From the IMG/VR virus record IMGVR_UViG_3300030376_000661, positions 1-39,521 of that record: 39,521 bases of DNA; one strand, given 5' to 3'. The DNA comes from a virus (Duplodnaviria; Caudoviricetes). Positions 4,516 through 20,652 of the stretch are shown in pieces. A program made the translations under genes and the position numbers. Position 1 is the first letter of the stretch. Each line of letters opens with the position of its first letter. Under the pieces are notes generated by a model. The model did not search any database and had not been told where the DNA came from. It saw nothing but the letters and a program-made list of their open reading frames with translations.

Positions 4516-6139
4516 ACGAATTAAGAATTTTAAAAATTTTTTGTATTTGTGTTGGAAACACTTAAACTTACCAGAACCAACACCTATACAGTACGATATT
4601 GCAGATTATTTGCAATCATCTAACAAAAGAATAGTAATAGAAGCCTTTAGAGGTGTAGGTAAATCATGGATTACTTCAGCATTTGTCTGTCACCAACTTC
4701 TATTAAACCCACAACGTAACATATTAGTTGTATCTGCATCTAAAAGTAGGGCTGATGATTTCAGTACATTTACACAAAGATTAATAGGTGAGATGCCTAT
4801 ACTGTCTCATTTAATACCAAGAGACAACCAAAGACATTCAAAAATTAGTTTTGATGTAGCACCTGCGTTAGCATCACATGCACCAAGTGTTAAATCAATG
4901 GGTATTACAGGACAACTTACAGGTTCACGTGCAGATTTAATTATTGCTGATGACGTAGAGTCAGCTAATAACTCACAAACACAACTTATGCGTGATAGAC
5001 TTGGTGAGACTGTAAAAGAGTTTGATGCAATCATAAAACCTGAAGTAGGACGTATTATATTCTTAGGAACACCTCAAACAGAGATGTCATTATACAATGA
5101 CCTAGAAGAAAGAGGTTTTAAGACTAAAATATGGACTGCATTAGTACCTACTAAGACTCAAAGAATAGGATATGGTAGCAAACTTGCAGATATAATTGAT
5201 GGGGACGAAGGTAAACCCACAGACCCTAAAAGATTTGATGAAGTAGACTTATTGGAAAGACTATCAAGTTATGGTAAAAGTGGATTCAACCTACAGTTTA
5301 TGTTAGATACTACAATGTCTGACGCAAACAGATACCCTTTAAAGTTGAATGACTTAATTGTAGCTTCAGGTTCATCTACATGGAAAGATGCTCCTGCTAA
5401 AATACAATGGGCTAGTTCTCCTGAACAAATTAAAGCAGTAGACCCTGAGTTGCCTAATGTAGGCTTAAAAGGTGACTATTATGTAGCACCATTGTTTATG
5501 TCTAAAGAATACACGAAATTTGAGGGTACTATTATGTCAATTGACCCTAGTGGTCGTGGAGAAGACAAAACAGCGTATGCGGTGCTTAAAATGCTTCATG
5601 GAGTGCTTTATTTGACTGCCGTAGGTTCATTAGATGGTGGATACTCAGAGGATACTCTGTATAGATTGTCTAATATAGCTAAGAAGAATGATGTAAACTA
5701 TGTAGTCATAGAGTCTAACTTTGGTGATGGTATGGCAACACAATTACTTAAACCTATCATGGCTAAGATACACCCATGTGAAGTAGAGGAAGTAAGACAC
5801 AATATTCAAAAAGAGAAACGTATCATTGATACTTTAGAGCCAATTATGAATAGTCATAGGCTCGTAGTAGATGATTTATTAATTAAGGAAGATTTTAAAT
5901 TAGAACCTGACCACCAGTTGTTTAGACAAATGACTAGATTAACAAGGGACAAAGGAGCTCTAAGACATGATGACCAAATTGATGCAGTGGCTATTGCCGC
6001 TAATGCTTGGGTTGAGCGTATGGACAGAGACCAGTTACTCTCATATAACCAACACAAATCAGAGTTATTGGACAGAGACTTGGAGAAATTTATGGAAAAC
6101 ACAGTCGGAAGACGTATACAAAAGGATAGATTTATATAA
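4508..6139 (+). CDS. Terminase large subunit (T7 gp19-like)
   Basis: Walker A AFRGVGKS, Walker B LIIADDVE, GTPQ, nuclease SIDPSGRG and HDDQIDA. Start probably ATG 4508. Confidence 0.97.
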   Translation: MDKRIKNFKNFLYLCWKHLNLPEPTPIQYDIADYLQSSNKRIVIEAFRGVGKSWITSAFVCHQLLLNPQRNILVVSASKSRADDFSTFTQRLIGEMPILSHLIPRDNQRHSKISFDVAPALASHAPSVKSMGITGQLTGSRADLIIADDVESANNSQTQLMRDRLGETVKEFDAIIKPEVGRIIFLGTPQTEMSLYNDLEERGFKTKIWTALVPTKTQRIGYGSKLADIIDGDEGKPTDPKRFDEVDLLERLSSYGKSGFNLQFMLDTTMSDANRYPLKLNDLIVASGSSTWKDAPAKIQWASSPEQIKAVDPELPNVGLKGDYYVAPLFMSKEYTKFEGTIMSIDPSGRGEDKTAYAVLKMLHGVLYLTAVGSLDGGYSEDTLYRLSNIAKKNDVNYVVIESNFGDGMATQLLKPIMAKIHPCEVEEVRHNIQKEKRIIDTLEPIMNSHRLVVDDLLIKEDFKLEPDHQLFRQMTRLTRDKGALRHDDQIDAVAIAANAWVERMDRDQLLSYNQHKSELLDRDLEKFMENTVGRRIQKDRFI

Positions 6140-6140
6140 C

Positions 6141-6746
6141 ATGAGTGAGAATAAAGAATTTAACATTGATTGGAACTTCATTGCAAAAAAAGAAGGCGGT
6201 CAATGGACTAATGGCTATGTACCTAGTGAAAACTCAGGTGTGACTATAGCTACTGGTTTTGATTTAAAAATGAAAACTGCTGATGATTTAAAAGCAATGG
6301 GAATACCAGAACCTTTAATTAATAAACTTATTATATTCACAGGAATCTCAGGTTCAGAAGCAAAAGAAAAAGCTAAAGATTTACAAATAACTTCTGAAGA
6401 AGCCAATCTTATAGATAAAAATTCTAAAAGATGGTATGCAAATAAGATAGCTGAAAAGTATTTTGAAGTGTCTAATGGCAAGAATTTTAAAGATTTGACT
6501 ATGGCACAACAGACTGTAATAACTTCTGTAGGCTTCAATCATGGGGTTAGTTTTACACGTAAAGATGGTAAGCAAATGGACTTTATAAAACAGGCGGCAG
6601 AGGGTGATTGGACAGCTATGATTGCCAATTTAAGAAACTTTGGTGATAATCCTATACTTAAACCTAGAAGATTAGACGAAGCTAACTATTTAGAAGACTC
6701 GTTAAAAAAGAAACCAATAGCTCCTGCTTTTGATGTGTCTCCCTAA
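6141..6746 (+). CDS. Pesticin-C/T4-lysozyme-like muramidase (endolysin or virion hydrolase)
   Basis: FIAKKEGG...GYVP...NSGVTIATGFDL...QQTVITSVGFNHG...RRLDEANYL matches the pesticin lysozyme-like domain. ATG 6141 lies just after the TerL stop. Confidence 0.8.
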   Translation: MSENKEFNIDWNFIAKKEGGQWTNGYVPSENSGVTIATGFDLKMKTADDLKAMGIPEPLINKLIIFTGISGSEAKEKAKDLQITSEEANLIDKNSKRWYANKIAEKYFEVSNGKNFKDLTMAQQTVITSVGFNHGVSFTRKDGKQMDFIKQAAEGDWTAMIANLRNFGDNPILKPRRLDEANYLEDSLKKKPIAPAFDVSP

Positions 6747-7550: not shown

Positions 7551-7608
7551 TGTTTGTCTCATATTATTAAATATGACTGAAGAGCTATCAGTAATAGCGA
7601 AACAAACA
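7551..7608 (+). ncRNA. Hammerhead ribozyme, type III (HHR1)
   Basis: Stem III TGTTTGT/ACAAACA, cleavage triplet GUC (C7558), stem I TCATATT/AATATGA, core CTGAAGA (7577-83), stem II GCTAT/ATAGC, GAAA (7599-7602). Confidence 0.9.
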
Positions 7609-7623
7609 GGAGTCTTTTATATA

Positions 7624-7788
7624 ATGAAGATATCTAAAAAAGTCTCTAAAATGCAGAACGCTGAAAGTCTGGCAAAGTTTAAAGACAGCCAAGCCAAGGC
7701 AGAACATTTTAGACTTTATAATAAAGAGACTGACAAAGCCAAAAAGATTAAAATGTTGGCTGAAGCAGTTAAAGAGGGTTGGCTGTAA
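7624..7788 (+). CDS. Early hypothetical protein, 54 aa, basic
   Basis: AGGAG SD at 7608-12 favours ATG 7624 (MKISKKVSK...) over 7573, which lies inside the ribozyme. Confidence 0.65.
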   Translation: MKISKKVSKMQNAESLAKFKDSQAKAEHFRLYNKETDKAKKIKMLAEAVKEGWL

Positions 7789-7826: not shown

Positions 7827-7985
7827 ATGTTCAACGAGATACAAATTAATAAAATTGGTTTTGTATCTGGTGGGCGTGAGCTGTTAGACTCGCAAGAGTC
7901 TATTTTTGTTGAGTCTTTAGAAGATGAGCTCACACTAGAGCAGAAACTAGAGCTTCACAAAAAGAAATATTTTGCGAGATATTAA
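7827..7985 (+). CDS. Early hypothetical protein
   Basis: In-frame ATG 7827 of tracked ORF 7779-7985; weak SD. Confidence 0.45.
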   Translation: MFNEIQINKIGFVSGGRELLDSQESIFVESLEDELTLEQKLELHKKKYFARY

Positions 7986-7998
7986 ACTTAACATGTAT

Positions 7999-8021
7999 AG
8001 GCGGTTGATTTTTAGCCGCCT
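7999..8021 (+). terminator. GC-rich hairpin (terminator or processing/stability element)
   Basis: AGGCGGTTGA-TTT-TTAGCCGCCT 10-bp stem in an intergenic gap; poor U-tract. Confidence 0.45.
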
Positions 8022-8067
8022 TGCATTTAAACTAAAATAAACAAACTAACAAATAGGAGTCTATAAC

Positions 8068-8148
8068 ATGTCAATTAAATTAGCTTTTTTCAATATAGCT
8101 GTTTTATTATATGGTTATATAATGCTATCAATATTAGGAGTTTTATAA
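8068..8148 (+). CDS. 26-aa hydrophobic peptide
   Basis: MSIKLAFFNIAVLLYGYIMLSILGVL*; strong TAGGAG SD. Confidence 0.6.
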   Translation: MSIKLAFFNIAVLLYGYIMLSILGVL

Positions 8149-8149
8149 T

Positions 8150-8233
8150 ATGATTGGTATATTTTTAACAATTGGAATACTTATTATAGGAATTATTGCT
8201 ATAATGGGTATGAAGTCAACAGGAGCTTTATAA
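8150..8233 (+). CDS. 27-aa hydrophobic peptide
   Basis: MIGIFLTIGILIIGIIAIMGMKSTGAL*; TAGGAG SD inside the previous ORF end. Confidence 0.6.
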   Translation: MIGIFLTIGILIIGIIAIMGMKSTGAL

Positions 8234-8234
8234 T

Positions 8235-8387
8235 ATGAATATGAGCGAAGCAATAGACAGAATAAGAGAAGCTGTTGAATATTATGATATGGTGCATGAT
8301 ACAGGAAACCCAAAACAGACATTAAAAAACAAGGATTATGTTTGGAAGGGTTATGATAAATTAATTGAATTATGCAACAATAAATAG
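8235..8387 (+). CDS. Early hypothetical 50-aa protein
   Basis: MNMSEAIDRIREAVEYYDMVHDTGNPKQTLKNKDYVWKGYDKLIELCNNK*. AGGAG SD. Its TAG stop supplies the first base of HHR2. Confidence 0.65.
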   Translation: MNMSEAIDRIREAVEYYDMVHDTGNPKQTLKNKDYVWKGYDKLIELCNNK

Positions 8388-8445
8388 AGCGAAACAGGGC
8401 GGAGCTTTTGCCCTGTCTTAAGGTTAAGCCTTAACTGATGAGCTC
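8387..8445 (+). ncRNA. Hammerhead ribozyme, type II (HHR2)
   Basis: GAGC-GAAA-stem III ACAGGGC/GCCCTGT-C8417-stem I TTAAGG/CCTTAA-CTGATGA-GCTC. All core nucleotides canonical. Confidence 0.93.
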
Positions 8446-8483
8446 AAAGCAATTCAGAAATTAAACAAATAGGAGTCTAAAAA

Positions 8484-8870
8484 ATGAGAAGTTATCCAAT
8501 ATGGGTTGATACTCATAACAACGCTTATAGTAATTCGGCGGCAAAGTCTCAAGGTATTAGAGACTATTCACAAAGTCGGATTTATGTTGGCACAAGTGCC
8601 GCCAATTCTTATCAATTCGGTGATTATAGTATAAGTCATAATGACAACGGCAAAGAAAAAAACTATAATTTCTATGTTGACGGTGAGCTAGTTAAGACTG
8701 CAACATATAACAAGTATAAGAAAAAAATGGAGTCTAAAAACTATATGAGCGAAGAGTCATTAAAAGAAAAATACTTTAAAAAGTGGAAAAAAGAAGAGGA
8801 AGCCAAAGAGGAAGCGTTCAGGAATGAGCGATACGCTGAACGATTAAGAGTCAACGGCTATCGTGATTAA
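8484..8870 (+). CDS. Early hypothetical protein (128 aa) flanked by two hammerheads
   Basis: TAGGAG SD. Beta-rich N-terminal part, charged helical C-terminal part. No family recognised. Confidence 0.8.
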   Translation: MRSYPIWVDTHNNAYSNSAAKSQGIRDYSQSRIYVGTSAANSYQFGDYSISHNDNGKEKNYNFYVDGELVKTATYNKYKKKMESKNYMSEESLKEKYFKKWKKEEEAKEEAFRNERYAERLRVNGYRD

Positions 8871-8886
8871 TAATAATAAACACAAA

Positions 8887-8945
8887 GAGCGAAACAGGGC
8901 GGAGCTTCCGCCTTGTCTGAAGGTCATGCCTTCACTGATGAGCTC
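8887..8945 (+). ncRNA. Hammerhead ribozyme, type II (HHR3)
   Basis: GAGC-GAAA-stem III ACAGGGCGG/CCGCCTTGT-C8917-stem I TGAAGG/CCTTCA-CTGATGA-GCTC. Compensatory changes relative to HHR2. Confidence 0.93.
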
Positions 8946-9143: not shown

Positions 9144-9248
9144 ATTAAATGAGCTGAGCTTAGCTTCTAGCGTGATTATCAAACTTTTATAGTATTGACT
9201 GGAGCGTGGAGCTGAGCTTAGCTCTTAACAAACTAACAAAAAGGATAT

Positions 9249-9335
9249 ATGTCTTGGTTAGTATATAAAGCAAAAGTGGTTGGCACTTATACTTTTATCT
9301 ATGCACAAAAAGTATGGGGATTGCTACCATTTTAA
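9249..9335 (+). CDS. 28-aa hypothetical peptide
   Basis: MSWLVYKAKVVGTYTFIYAQKVWGLLPF*; AAGGA SD after an A/C-rich leader. Confidence 0.55.
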   Translation: MSWLVYKAKVVGTYTFIYAQKVWGLLPF

Positions 9336-9402
9336 TCAACAAAGAGATGGAGCTGAGCTTAGCTTGGCTCTGTCTTTACAAACAAACAAAGGAGTAAAAA
9401 AT

Positions 9403-9621: not shown

Positions 9622-9853
9622 TATGATAGACTATAATTTTGTAAGTAAGCAAAGACTAAACGGCGTACTTACTAAGTTAGACGCTGAGCCTGTAGTAGTT
9701 AAGGCTTTGAGTCTTAAAAAAGCAATAGCCAAATTTACACCACCAACAAAGTGTGTAGAGGCGGACATCTATTGGACGAGCAGAAAACATAACTATTCTA
9801 AAAAAGTTATTGCAATTCCACACGTGACAAGGAAACAAAGGAAGGGTAAATGA
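9614..9853 (+). CDS. Early hypothetical basic protein
   Basis: 79-aa ORF overlapping both neighbours. Confidence 0.65.
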   Translation: MNNMIDYNFVSKQRLNGVLTKLDAEPVVVKALSLKKAIAKFTPPTKCVEADIYWTSRKHNYSKKVIAIPHVTRKQRKGK

Positions 9854-9957
9854 TAGAAATATTTTTAGATGCACCAATGGAGCTCAAGGTTTTAATCTTG
9901 GGCTTCTTTGTCTTATTAATAAAAGAAATGTTAAAGGAAGGTAAAAATGGCAGATAG
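9850..9957 (+). CDS. 35-aa membrane peptide
   Basis: MIEIFLDAPMELKVLILGFFVLLIKEMLKEGKNGR*; ATGA overlap, fills the gap. Confidence 0.55.
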   Translation: MIEIFLDAPMELKVLILGFFVLLIKEMLKEGKNGR

Positions 9958-10157: not shown

Positions 10158-10964
10158 ATGAAAACAATAAAAGAAATAAAAGACTCACTATCTTGGGAAA
10201 CTTCTCAGGATAGTAGAGCTGAGCTTTGCTTAAATTTTTTTGGAGCTGAGCTTAGTCCAAAAGATATACACGAAGAGAATATTGAAGACTTAACTGCACA
10301 TTTAAAGAAGCGTGGAATTAAGGGTTCAACAATTAACAGGTATCTTGCGAGTGTAAGTAAGATATTAAAATATGCTTATCAAAGACCTAATGTCTACCAG
10401 ATGAATAGAGTTCCGCACATAGTATGGCAGGAAGAGTCTAAAGCTAGACTAAGATTTATGACACCAGAAGAAGAGCAGACAATGATTAAGATTCTAAGCA
10501 AGAGTCCATATCTGAGTCTATTTTTATTTCTGTTGGATACAGGCGTTAGACTTGGTGAAGCGTTGTCATTTAAAAAAGATGCAATTCAAAAATTAGATGG
10601 TAAATACTTTATTGTATTATATGCAGATGAGACTAAAAATAGTACAACGAGGAGTGTACCTTTGACTAGACGTTGTGTATCTTTATTAAAAAAATCAGGT
10701 GATTTTAGTCATTTAGATTATAGCATGGCTGAGCGTGTATGGACTAAATTACGTTTAGACATGGGCTTAGCTAGTGATAAACAATTTGTTATTCACTGCT
10801 TACGTCATACTTGTGCTTCAAGATTAGCTCAATCAGGTAAAGTAGAATTACACTTTATTAAAGAATGGTTGGGTCATAAGTCTTACAATATGACGCTTAG
10901 GTATGCCCATTTAATGCCTAAAAATCTACTAAAAGCTGTCTCAATATTGGAAGACTACGAGTAA
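10158..10964 (+). CDS. int: Tyrosine recombinase / integrase
   Basis: Catalytic set: DTGVRLGE (R), ETKN (K), HCLRH (HxxR), WLGH, LRYAH (Y). 268 aa, no obvious arm-binding domain. Confidence 0.95.
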   Translation: MKTIKEIKDSLSWETSQDSRAELCLNFFGAELSPKDIHEENIEDLTAHLKKRGIKGSTINRYLASVSKILKYAYQRPNVYQMNRVPHIVWQEESKARLRFMTPEEEQTMIKILSKSPYLSLFLFLLDTGVRLGEALSFKKDAIQKLDGKYFIVLYADETKNSTTRSVPLTRRCVSLLKKSGDFSHLDYSMAERVWTKLRLDMGLASDKQFVIHCLRHTCASRLAQSGKVELHFIKEWLGHKSYNMTLRYAHLMPKNLLKAVSILEDYE

Positions 10965-10979
10965 AGTTCCCATAGTAGA
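10959..10979 (+). promoter_or_regulatory. Phage RNAP promoter copy 2 (upstream of the RNAP gene)
   Basis: GAGTAAAGTTCCCATAGTAGA overlapping the integrase stop codon. Confidence 0.75.
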
Positions 10980-11015
10980 TAGCACAAATTAACACATAAA
11001 CTTATAGGAGTTAAA

Positions 11016-13463
11016 TTGACCAAGATATTAGAAATAATGCCTACTTTCCCAGACCAAGAGGCTAACGAAAAAGACATGGCTTTGTCAGGGACAGTAAGAA
11101 CGAATAAAAGACTCAATAGTCATATTGACCGAGAAGAAGAGAGTGTTACCAGTTACGGTAAAGTAATGGTAGCCAACACAATCAGACCTTTAGCAATGCA
11201 CATAGGTGACTGGATAAAACGTACATCTGAACGTACTGTATGTAAACCACCTATTGCTTTCACTAAATTATGTGAAGTTGAACCTGAGATATTGGCTTTG
11301 ATAACTGGTAAACATATAATCAATACAATCACACAATATAAACCATTAACTGCTACATGTATTAGTCTAGGTGGTAAAGTTGAGACTGAAATAGCTTTAA
11401 AGAATTTCAGATATTTAAACCCAGAGTTATACGACACAGTTAAAAAAGATTTAGACAAAAGGTCTTGGAATTATACTTATAAGCGTAGAAAACTTAGAGA
11501 GAGTGCTAAAAGAGACACTATTATGTCTTGGGAAGAATGGACTACTCCAACTAAACTACACGTAGGTTTAAGACTCGTAGAGCTTATGATTGAGTCTACT
11601 GGTATGATTGAGTTGGGTGTAGAAACTATTAAACACAAAAAAGCTAAGATTATTAAACAGACTCAGAAGACTAGAGAATGGATTAAAAATAGAAATGCTT
11701 TTAATGAATTACTTAATCCTGATTACATGATGACTGTAATGCCCCCTAAAATGTGGTCAACAGTTCATGGTGGCGGTTATTGGACTAAGGAATTACCAGA
11801 GTTAGATTTAGTTAAACAAAAGAATAAATTGTTTGCTAGAGAATTAGCTAACTTTGAAATGCCTAAAGTATACAGGGCGGTAAACGCAATGCAGTCAACC
11901 GCATATAAAATAAATAATTATATTTTAGGTGTTATGGCTGAGGCTTGGGACAGAGGACTGGCTATCGGTGGTATGCCACCAATTAAAAATCTTACAGTTC
12001 CTAACAAGCCTCACGACATTAAAGAAAATAAAGAGTCAAGACGTAAGTGGAAAAAAGAAGCAGTTATAGTCCACACAGAAAATGCTCGTATGTTCTCTAA
12101 AAGAATGTTGTATGCAAAGATATTGTATCTTGGTGATAAATTTAAAACTTATGCCACAGTATACTTTCCATTACAATTTGATTTCAGAGGAAGAGCGTAT
12201 GCCGTTCCTGCCTTTTTAAATTATCAATCTATTAATGGTGCTAAAGCATTGTTGTCGTTTGCACATGGTAAACCTATCACTGAAGAGAACAAAGGTGATT
12301 TTTGGTTAGCAGTTCATGGTGCGAATATGTATGGCAATGATAAAGTCTCATTAGAAGATAGAGTTAAATGGGTTGAAGATAATGAAGACTGGATACTTAA
12401 ATGTGTTGAAGACCCATTCACAAATAGACAATGGGAAGACGCAAGTAATGCTTTTCAATTCTTAGCGTGGGCTGAGGAGTGGAAAAGATTTAAAGCTGAA
12501 GGTTATGGCTTTGTATCTAACATTGTTATTAATGTTGATGGCTCTTGTAATGGATTACAAATTTATTCATTAATGTTAAGAGACAAAAAAGCAGGTGAGT
12601 TAGTCAATTTATTACCTAGTGATAAACCTAAAGACATTTATCAATTAGTTGCAAATTCTGTAATAGAGAAACTAAAAGAACATGCGGTTGAAGGAAGACC
12701 GTATGCACAACAATGGCTTGATTATGGAGTGAAGCGTTCAACGACTAAAAGAAGTATTATGACTATCTGTTATGGAAGTACCAGATATTCTTGTACGGAC
12801 TTTGTTGTTGAAGACTTAACAAAACGTAAAGATAAGGGAGAAGAACACCCTTTTATTAATGATATGTTTAAACCATGTTCATACTTAGCAAGTATAATAT
12901 GGGATAGCATTGGTGACAATTTACAATCAGCACGTACTGGAATGAAATTTTTACAGGACATTGCTCGTATTGTTGCTAAAGAACAGTTGCCTATACACTG
13001 GGTTACGCCTGTTGGCTTTCCAGTATATCAGTCATACCCTGAGATGAAGTCTAAAAGAGTTAAGGCTATGTTAATGGGTGAAGTTATAAAGCCTCGTATA
13101 AATACTGAGACTGACTTAACTGACAAATTGCGAATGAGTAACGGAGTAGCACCTAATCTGGTTCACTCGGTAGACTCCGCCGCAATGATTGAGACTGTGA
13201 ATGTTGCATTAGATAATGGTATTACCAATTTCTGTAACGTACACGACTCATTCGGAACTACTGCGGCTGACGTAGAAGTTCTAAACACAAGTCTAAGAGA
13301 AGCGTTTATAAAACTATTTACTGAAAATGATATATTAGAGAATTTCAGAAATGACGTTTTAAAACAATTACCTGAAAACTTGAAAGCTAAATTACCTGAA
13401 GTTCCTCAAAAAGGTGATTTAGATATAAATGAATTGAGGAAAAGCAGGTTCTTCTTTGCATAA
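11016..13463 (+). CDS. T7-like single-subunit DNA-directed RNA polymerase (gp1)
   Basis: DFRGRAY, DGSCNGLQ, RSTTKRSIMTICYG, APNLVHSVD, VHDSFGT, C-terminal FFFA. TTG start with TAGGAG SD. Confidence 0.98.
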   Translation: MTKILEIMPTFPDQEANEKDMALSGTVRTNKRLNSHIDREEESVTSYGKVMVANTIRPLAMHIGDWIKRTSERTVCKPPIAFTKLCEVEPEILALITGKHIINTITQYKPLTATCISLGGKVETEIALKNFRYLNPELYDTVKKDLDKRSWNYTYKRRKLRESAKRDTIMSWEEWTTPTKLHVGLRLVELMIESTGMIELGVETIKHKKAKIIKQTQKTREWIKNRNAFNELLNPDYMMTVMPPKMWSTVHGGGYWTKELPELDLVKQKNKLFARELANFEMPKVYRAVNAMQSTAYKINNYILGVMAEAWDRGLAIGGMPPIKNLTVPNKPHDIKENKESRRKWKKEAVIVHTENARMFSKRMLYAKILYLGDKFKTYATVYFPLQFDFRGRAYAVPAFLNYQSINGAKALLSFAHGKPITEENKGDFWLAVHGANMYGNDKVSLEDRVKWVEDNEDWILKCVEDPFTNRQWEDASNAFQFLAWAEEWKRFKAEGYGFVSNIVINVDGSCNGLQIYSLMLRDKKAGELVNLLPSDKPKDIYQLVANSVIEKLKEHAVEGRPYAQQWLDYGVKRSTTKRSIMTICYGSTRYSCTDFVVEDLTKRKDKGEEHPFINDMFKPCSYLASIIWDSIGDNLQSARTGMKFLQDIARIVAKEQLPIHWVTPVGFPVYQSYPEMKSKRVKAMLMGEVIKPRINTETDLTDKLRMSNGVAPNLVHSVDSAAMIETVNVALDNGITNFCNVHDSFGTTAADVEVLNTSLREAFIKLFTENDILENFRNDVLKQLPENLKAKLPEVPQKGDLDINELRKSRFFFA

Positions 13464-20025: not shown

Positions 20026-20264
20026 AACAACCCCCTCATTATTTTAGATATAAAATAGAACCTGTTACTTTTATTATGCAGAATGATATACCTTATGCAG
20101 AAGGTAACGCTATTAAATATTTATGTCGTTGGAGATTCAAACACAAAACTAAAGAAGCTCAAATAGAAGATTTAAAAAAAGCTAGACAGTACATTGATTT
20201 AATTCTTGAAAAAGAAACTCAATCAGAAATTAAATTAAAACTAGGTAAGGGGGGTGATGCTTGA
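20010..20264 (+). CDS. DUF3310 / T7 gp1.7-like protein
   Basis: VKQPPHY, GNAIKYLCR, EDLKKARQY. Confidence 0.85.
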   Translation: MADKVKQPPHYFRYKIEPVTFIMQNDIPYAEGNAIKYLCRWRFKHKTKEAQIEDLKKARQYIDLILEKETQSEIKLKLGKGGDA

Positions 20265-20652
20265 ACATAAACATATTTTAATTAGGGCAACTGTTAAACG
20301 TCCACCTATACAAGTAGATACAATCAAAGCATGGGTAAGAAATTTAGTAGGTGACTTAGGTATGAAACCTTTAGGTGAAACTGTTGCTGTCTATGTAGAT
20401 AAAAAAGGTAACAGAGGTTTAACTTGTATACAAGCTATTGAAACATCACACATAGCATTACATTCATGGGACGAAGATAGTCCTGCTGTTATTCAATTAG
20501 ATGTCTACACTTGCAGTAAGTTAAATAAAGAAGTTGTATTTAAAGCACTAGATAAGTTTGACCCAATAGAAATTAATTACTTAACACTAGATAGACAAAA
20601 ATATTTAGACATAAAAAACAAAGATGAGATAAACAATGACAATAGATTATAA
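20257..20652 (+). CDS. speD: Pyruvoyl-dependent decarboxylase of the S-adenosylmethionine decarboxylase (SpeD) family
   Basis: HILI...GLT...IETSHIALHSWDE...QLDVYTC; self-cleavage Ser in a TSH context. Confidence 0.85.
   Translation: MLEHKHILIRATVKRPPIQVDTIKAWVRNLVGDLGMKPLGETVAVYVDKKGNRGLTCIQAIETSHIALHSWDEDSPAVIQLDVYTCSKLNKEVVFKALDKFDPIEINYLTLDRQKYLDIKNKDEINNDNRL

Follow-up and report, generated by a model that had tools for sequence, protein, structure and literature searches.

The early mRNA of phage T7 is reportedly cut by host RNase III, as Dunn and Studier are said to have described in 1973, and by analogy the early polycistronic RNA of the locus analyzed here would likewise be split at structured sites that lie between genes and precede the RNA polymerase gene. 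Likeness is also found in the prophage clusters of Perreault 2011, in which, according to the available part of that paper (PMC3088659), several hammerheads including type II flank small variable ORFs near an integrase, and processing into gene-length mRNAs was proposed. The same part reports that three tandem phage arrays cleaved in vitro and one in E. coli, with circular or spliced products considered and not detected. All three hammerhead types occur in phages according to the accessible text of PMC7761336, and their role there is called open in the accessible portions of two reviews (PMC6765202, PMC6155905). In retrozymes and viroid-like RNAs, as would be the case here, hammerheads in direct repeat, spaced by a few hundred bases, release unit-length RNA, the retrozyme motifs being of type III in plants or type I in animals and the units mobile and mostly non-coding (PMC7761336, same text). 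The A-U Hoogsteen contact of the sTRSV type (Chi et al. 2008, PMC2553840, in the part available) has an A immediately 5′ of the 3′ strand in stem II, with a U adjacent to residue 1.6, an arrangement shared by the motifs described below.

The window, meaning the whole stretch of DNA analyzed, is an entire virus record of 39.5 kb that carries genes for a T7-like RNA polymerase (RNAP), an integrase, a primase, a DNA polymerase and a capsid protein. Its best named DNA matches are Pelagibacter phages, with up to 76% over the polymerase gene; the window is, by such similarity, a T7-like pelagiphage, and because of these matches the inferred host is SAR11. All features given below lie on the plus strand. 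The integrase and T7-like RNA polymerase genes (10158..13463) place the hammerhead array in the early region.

Two type II hammerheads, HHR1 (8387..8445) and HHR2 (8887..8945), were identified by scan, fold and alignment, with the predicted cuts after C8417 and C8917, the last bases of their GUC triplets, separated by 500 nt around an ORF of 128 aa. The core elements CUGANGA, GAAA and NUH are present around a three-way junction in both, and loops cap stems I and III while stem II is open, which is the type II topology. A strict type II scan returned these two matches in the window against none in 200 dinucleotide shuffles, and the minimum-energy structure of each, folded alone, is the three-helix hammerhead (z of -2.9 and -3.2). 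Between HHR1 and HHR2, one U-A pair of stem I is changed to G-C and G-C/G-U swaps occur in stem III. In an alignment of 13 mutually related copies, 99.6% of cells pair, against 27-45% in slid controls, and 5 of the 18 stem pairs change on both sides, a covariation that supports the helices; stem II was set by the search pattern, so its invariance is uninformative. The initial annotation had placed both motifs, their cut positions, the 500-nt spacing and the ORF (8484-8870) exactly as found here and had described the differences between the two copies correctly, and its proposal of selection on hammerhead structure is backed by the pairing and the two-sided changes among the 13 copies. Related twin type II pairs are spaced 478, 499 and 510 nt apart, and the round figure of 500 nt is best regarded as incidental. 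A scan against Rfam 15, suggested in that annotation as a check, returned no hammerhead family for HHR1 or HHR2 at E up to 1.

Both of the hammerheads first annotated are thus real, but the array is larger than had been claimed, since a type III hammerhead was found by scan and fold at 7551..7608. Its predicted cut falls after C7558, 66 nt 5′ of the first early ORF (7624..7788; 54 aa, with a ribosome-binding site). The array in the window comprises three motifs in the order III, II, II on the coding strand at gene boundaries, and the scanner for all three topologies gave no match in 100 shuffles of the 4.3-kb region. Hammerhead-like words at 7923-7948 were rejected, as they lie within a coding frame and lack a core. 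A type III motif is the first hammerhead in 18 of 24 related loci anchored on RNAP, and the one in the window may determine where the first early mRNA has its 5′ end.

Phages with this layout were already described in 2011, and the window shares the characters of clustered phage hammerheads: the motifs lie close together and flank single genes or short blocks, the flanked genes vary, and the context is that of a phage near an integrase. Unlike the clusters of Perreault 2011, the array lies in the early region of a T7-like pelagiphage, shows no enrichment of the loop I-tail pseudoknot, and has a conserved A and U1.7 as well as a core-complementary tail. In contrast to T7, division of the RNA would proceed by self-cleavage with 5′-OH and cyclic-phosphate ends and no host enzyme, while the host family keeps RNase III. 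HHR1 and HHR2 bound a unit as same-type hammerheads in direct repeat, as in retrozymes, but the bounded unit is not conserved and moving as a unit, the upstream border being absent in all nine distant homologue sequences; the phage gene sits in a fixed operon with borders that vary among relatives, and neither a reverse transcriptase nor a ligase was found in the phage ORFs scanned. The tertiary contact, proposed here from conservation, would differ from that of sTRSV in that stem II is open and the A lies in a single-stranded 5′ leader, not in a GNRA loop. A search of open-access titles and abstracts found no paper on pelagiphage hammerheads, though Dataset S1 of PMC3088659 may already list such marine sequences.

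A total of 81 loci were taken by polymerase similarity regardless of ribozymes, and 24 of them, with at least 3 kb upstream, formed the RNAP-anchored set; many loci are near-duplicates, so the counts among relatives are not independent. Upstream of RNAP, 19 of the 24 carry one to five hammerheads of types I, II and III, including 19 of the 20 loci at 76-92% RNAP identity and none of the four at 59-64%; the five relatives with no scanner-detected hammerhead include one at 92% identity. No hammerhead was detected downstream of the RNAP start in the relatives scanned, and minus-strand matches were limited to two loci with one each. The relatives hold 33 motifs of type I, 23 of type III and 20 of type II (L300 left out). 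Neighbouring hammerheads are of mixed type in 40 of 48 pairs and so cannot simply rebuild a ribozyme; nine of the 48 are type I followed by type II, which would release a piece devoid of any CUGANGA core. Among distinct neighbouring II-II pairs in the loci fetched, stem II is mismatched in 33 of 78, even though two seed patterns with fixed stems favour matches.

At least one hammerhead was found in 11 of 12 cultured pelagiphages, although two of the 12 originally came to notice by a match to a ribozyme, and for 11 the sequence examined was a part of the genome. Hammerheads of types I, II and III occur, with no annotation in the records, among HTVC019P (L302, at about 976 and 3002), EXVC025P (L066), HTVC109P (L067) and HTVC031P (L298). 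These four cultured pelagiphages carry arrays and have cultured hosts, which makes the role of the ribozymes directly testable, and since Rfam misses the motifs, annotations of this very common group of marine phages probably include too few hammerheads. Outside the pelagiphages, the contigs L017 and L039 (whole loci), L172-L173, L186, L203 and L061 have at least four type II hammerheads with mixed stem II, one at nearly every gene boundary. A contig of a Pelagibacteraceae genome (L297) holds a T7-like polymerase gene of 59% identity, probably in a prophage, with no hammerhead within 6 kb upstream.

The gene bracketed by HHR1 and HHR2 (8484..8870) encodes an early protein of 128 aa with 115 homologues and is preceded by a ribosome-binding site, AGGAG (8464..8486 with the start). 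The protein is modelled as a predicted six-stranded beta domain with a long C-terminal helix (pLDDT 81); no match was obtained in Pfam, PHROG or Atlas, and the structure search returned one unnamed viral structure of 92 aa (E 5e-5), with nothing from the PDB at E 0.001 or better. A hammerhead lies directly 5′ of this gene only in three loci of at least 92% identity (L308-L310). Among nine distinct homologue sequences of 55-86% identity, none has a hammerhead within 150 nt upstream, while seven have a type II motif downstream, so that HHR2 corresponds to the copy conserved 3′ of the gene in relatives. Three remote homologues (29-35%) were compared as well, and in one, that of HTVC019P, a type III motif lies 85 nt 5′ of the gene. 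The twin type II layout recurs in L309, L312 and L313, and in the last two the gene between the twins differs in its N-terminal part but shares the C-terminus. An internal repeat of the ribosome-binding site (8721-8740) precedes an in-frame ATG and could give a 41-aa C-terminal product (8745-8870); the C-terminus encoded there is common to genes with a different N-terminal domain (L054, L043, L075). Judged from these comparisons, the early region is a mosaic of modules and the HHR1/HHR2 twin is the arrangement of one lineage.

The hammerheads probably cut the early polycistronic RNA into linear pieces, and we hold this reading with good confidence. Each hammerhead would fold and cut as it is transcribed, and the three motifs would split the early transcript into RNAs of about 859 and 500 nt plus the remaining downstream part, much as RNase III does on T7. 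After a type II cut, the downstream RNA would start on a flush stem-I hairpin with a 5′-OH and the upstream RNA would end on a stem-III hairpin with a cyclic phosphate, the end chemistry given for hammerhead products in the available part of PMC6765202. The predicted released RNA of 500 nt (8418..8917) would therefore begin with a 5′-OH on a flush hairpin of 6-7 bp and end with a 3′ cyclic phosphate one base past a hairpin of 9-10 bp; the precisely excised single-gene RNA of the initial annotation is supported to this extent, as a prediction from the motifs. The cut products would separate because only four base pairs hold them together, and the HHR1 tail would then fold back onto the catalytic core, disfavouring rejoining. 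The likely gain would be that single-gene messages are stabilised or tuned one by one, in a host family that bears the 5′ exonuclease RNase J, of which near-full-length copies were found in 18 of 21 Pelagibacteraceae genomes, and, further, that early-gene modules still work when shuffled. According to data from Bacillus, ribozyme products with a 5′-OH can be attacked by RNase J, and a 5′ hairpin hinders the enzyme (PMC3997798, available part). Loss of host RNase III was also considered as a reason for using ribozymes and was rejected: the enzyme is present in 19 of the 21 genomes, so a missing host enzyme does not explain them. A further point against linear processing is that no ORF with a recognised ribosome-binding site was found closely 3′ of HHR2.

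A hairpin is predicted at 8435..8457, in which the UCAG of the 3′ tail (8454-57) pairs with the CUGA of the HHR1 core after the cut, with a probability of 0.83 at 37 °C and 0.96 at 20 °C (range 0.83-0.98, ViennaRNA). The same tail is seen in L308-L313. Of 169 type II clusters gathered from the phage loci, among which shared ancestry is still included, 34 have UCAG in the tail's first 16 nt, against a mean of 6.6 and a maximum of 16 in 1000 shuffles and against four in the upstream flank. Runs of at least six Watson-Crick pairs between tail and core were found in 21 of the 169 (mean 1.5), and the base before UCAG tracks core position 7, being A in 18 of 25 clusters with U7 and G in 6 of 9 with C7. 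Examples of AUCAG after CUGAUGA and of GUCAG after CUGACGA come from L160, L170, L247, L290 and L032. A broad measure of core-tail pairing is weak, with a mean of 0.50 against 0.45 in shuffles and 0.485-0.488 with tails swapped between ribozymes, and the tails of GAGC-stem ribozymes (n = 29) gave 26 against a mean of 22.3 and a maximum of 26, which is not significant. Core-tail pairing as a general rule was thus rejected on the broad measures and holds by the strict measures alone, under which roughly one in five type II hammerheads of phages has a core-complementary tail. No paper on such tails was found in the open-access literature, judged by titles and abstracts. The loop I-tail pseudoknot, common although not obligatory in the published type II consensus, was not enriched, being possible in 31 of the 169 clusters against 21% of shuffled ones.

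In 164 of the 169 clusters the base just 5′ of stem II's 3′ strand is A, and in 163 the seventh base after the cut is U (U1.7). In HHR1, A8386 and U8424 likely form an A-U Hoogsteen contact, and the conserved A and U1.7 fit the contact described in PMC2553840 and suggest fast ribozymes. The predicted active fold falls once the tail is added at 37 °C, from 0.39 to 0.06 for HHR1 and from 0.15 to 0.0002 for HHR2, with values of 0.0002-0.006 for HHR2 when the tail is 25-60 nt long. Because of this predicted drop, HHR2 may cut in a short co-transcriptional window only, or poorly.

The drop of the active fold is also what would be expected if the cuts were regulatory and destabilising, with partial or conditional cleavage, through competition between fold and tail, lowering or timing early expression, for instance in a lysis-lysogeny choice and in the manner of glmS and RNase J1. 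We consider this unlikely. The enrichment of UCAG tails (34 of 169 against 6.6 in shuffles) and the integrase lying downstream of the array agree with such a role, as does the degradation of 5′-OH ribozyme products by RNase J (PMC3997798, in the part available) in a host family with the enzyme in 18 of 21 genomes. However, the flush 5′ hairpin left by cuts of types II and III is protective, and no element for ligand binding was seen. Relatives with no annotated early-region integrase, among them EXVC025P and HTVC031P, also carry three hammerheads.

Also unlikely is that the ribozymes serve mainly as module borders which insulate early genes and whose 60-bp likeness promotes recombination, the twin being a by-product of module insertion. 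The region is indeed shuffled. Three small ORFs (8068..8387; 26, 27 and 50 aa) form with HHR1 a block of about 415 nt (8075-8486) that is missing in five relatives (L091, L098, L015, L022, L062); the 50-aa ORF directly 5′ of HHR1 is alone missing in two (L309, L310); a 28-aa ORF (9249..9335), which follows HHR2 in the window, is placed ahead of HHR2 in L091 and L098, with the bracketed gene on its other side; and the twins of L312 and L313 bracket the gene with the exchanged N-terminal part. On the other hand, this largest indel of the region ends at repeated ribosome-binding sites, the repeat at 8048..8070, with a 91% match to 8464-8486, marking the left end of the block absent from relatives. 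In no fetched relative is precisely the stretch from one cut to the other missing, and a hybrid copy was seen in none of three metagenome matches. Recombination, moreover, needs neither intact cores nor covarying stems nor three unrelated topologies. The exchangeable cassette of the initial annotation therefore stands as a shuffled mosaic of small modules, though not as the 500-nt unit itself, and a role at module borders does not exclude linear processing. A promoter scan gave 19 sites against 17.4 expected, which is uninformative.

The initial annotation had proposed that the 500-nt piece may be a circular mRNA, its ends rebuilding a hammerhead through stem II and being ligated by the reverse reaction or by RtcB. 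In a fuller form of this reading, the ends would ligate themselves and the tail, refolded onto the core, would trap the circle. The GCUC at 8442-45 is complementary to the GAGC at 8887-90 and can pair with it, as had been noted, and the fragment 8418-8917 holds all parts of the hybrid hammerhead, including U8424 and A8886 for the tertiary contact. Such end-to-end complementarity, however, arises from any two copies of one hammerhead. In the linear fragment the hybrid fold costs 1.8-3.0 kcal/mol, with a probability of 0.058 at 37 °C, 0.014 at 20 °C and 0.005 at 10 °C; it is thus a predicted minority state of 1-6% of molecules, against the 0.83-0.98 of the competing core-tail hairpin. These ViennaRNA estimates are rough, as tertiary contacts and ribosomes are ignored and the 440-nt multiloop is not charged by length. 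The best argument for a circle is that, once closed, it would adopt the hybrid fold still less often (0.001 at 37 °C), so that re-cutting would be slowed. For natural hammerheads, the religated share at equilibrium is about 10% to one third (available parts of PMC3884650 and PMC2553840). Because the hybrid fold reaches a few percent and natural hammerheads religate, a trace of circle in vitro is possible by these predictions.

The twin layout was seen again in three loci (L309, L312, L313), but the comparison with relatives points away from a circle as the purpose, given the mixed topologies in 40 of 48 neighbouring pairs and the lack of an upstream ribozyme in all nine distinct homologue sequences. 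RtcB was detected in none of 21 Pelagibacteraceae genomes, which are incomplete and belong to a host inferred from DNA similarity, whereas 10 of 14 controls were positive, and no RNA ligase or reverse transcriptase family was found among the 52 phage ORFs scanned. Only about 25 nt separate the 4-bp arm from the ribosome-binding site, and Perreault 2011 reported that no circles were detected from such arrays ('data not shown', in the available part of PMC3088659). When metagenomes were scanned with a pattern that would match either copy as well as the hybrid, three loci and no hybrid were returned; these are DNA assemblies and so silent on RNA circles. Three RNA assemblies gave no contig over the cut sites; for the two runs with 5-10% of the words, the contigs left out 8410-8864 and had no 8917-to-8418 joint, which is uninformative. 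If a circle did form, bacteria would have a further, new way to obtain circular mRNA: a DNA phage would make, unaided by any protein, a closed mRNA that is translated, and the core-complementary tail would be a general off-switch for ribozymes. A functional circular mRNA is, however, very improbable here.

Several further features were observed in the window. A 17-nt motif with GAGCTGAGCTT is repeated at 9149-9165, 9207-9223, 9348-9364 and near 10217, between HHR2 and the integrase gene, and these GAGCTGAGCTT repeats are possible repressor, integrase or promoter sites. The piece around 9240-9335 also matches HTVC104P and HTVC203P. A G+C-rich hairpin at 7999-8022, 5′ of the ribosome-binding site for the ORF at 8068, is a possible RNase III site or stabiliser, and in the relatives that lack HHR1 it lies directly 5′ of the 128-aa gene. 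Hydrophobic early-region ORFs of 26-35 aa with ribosome-binding sites (8068-8148, 8150-8233, 9249-9335 and 9850-9957) possibly encode small membrane proteins. Outside the early region, the ORF after the terminase gene (5967-6746) has a pesticin-like lysozyme domain (PF16754, E 3e-27), and an S-adenosylmethionine decarboxylase-like ORF (20254-20652; PHROG 3125, E 1e-13) adjoins the ribonucleotide reductase genes.
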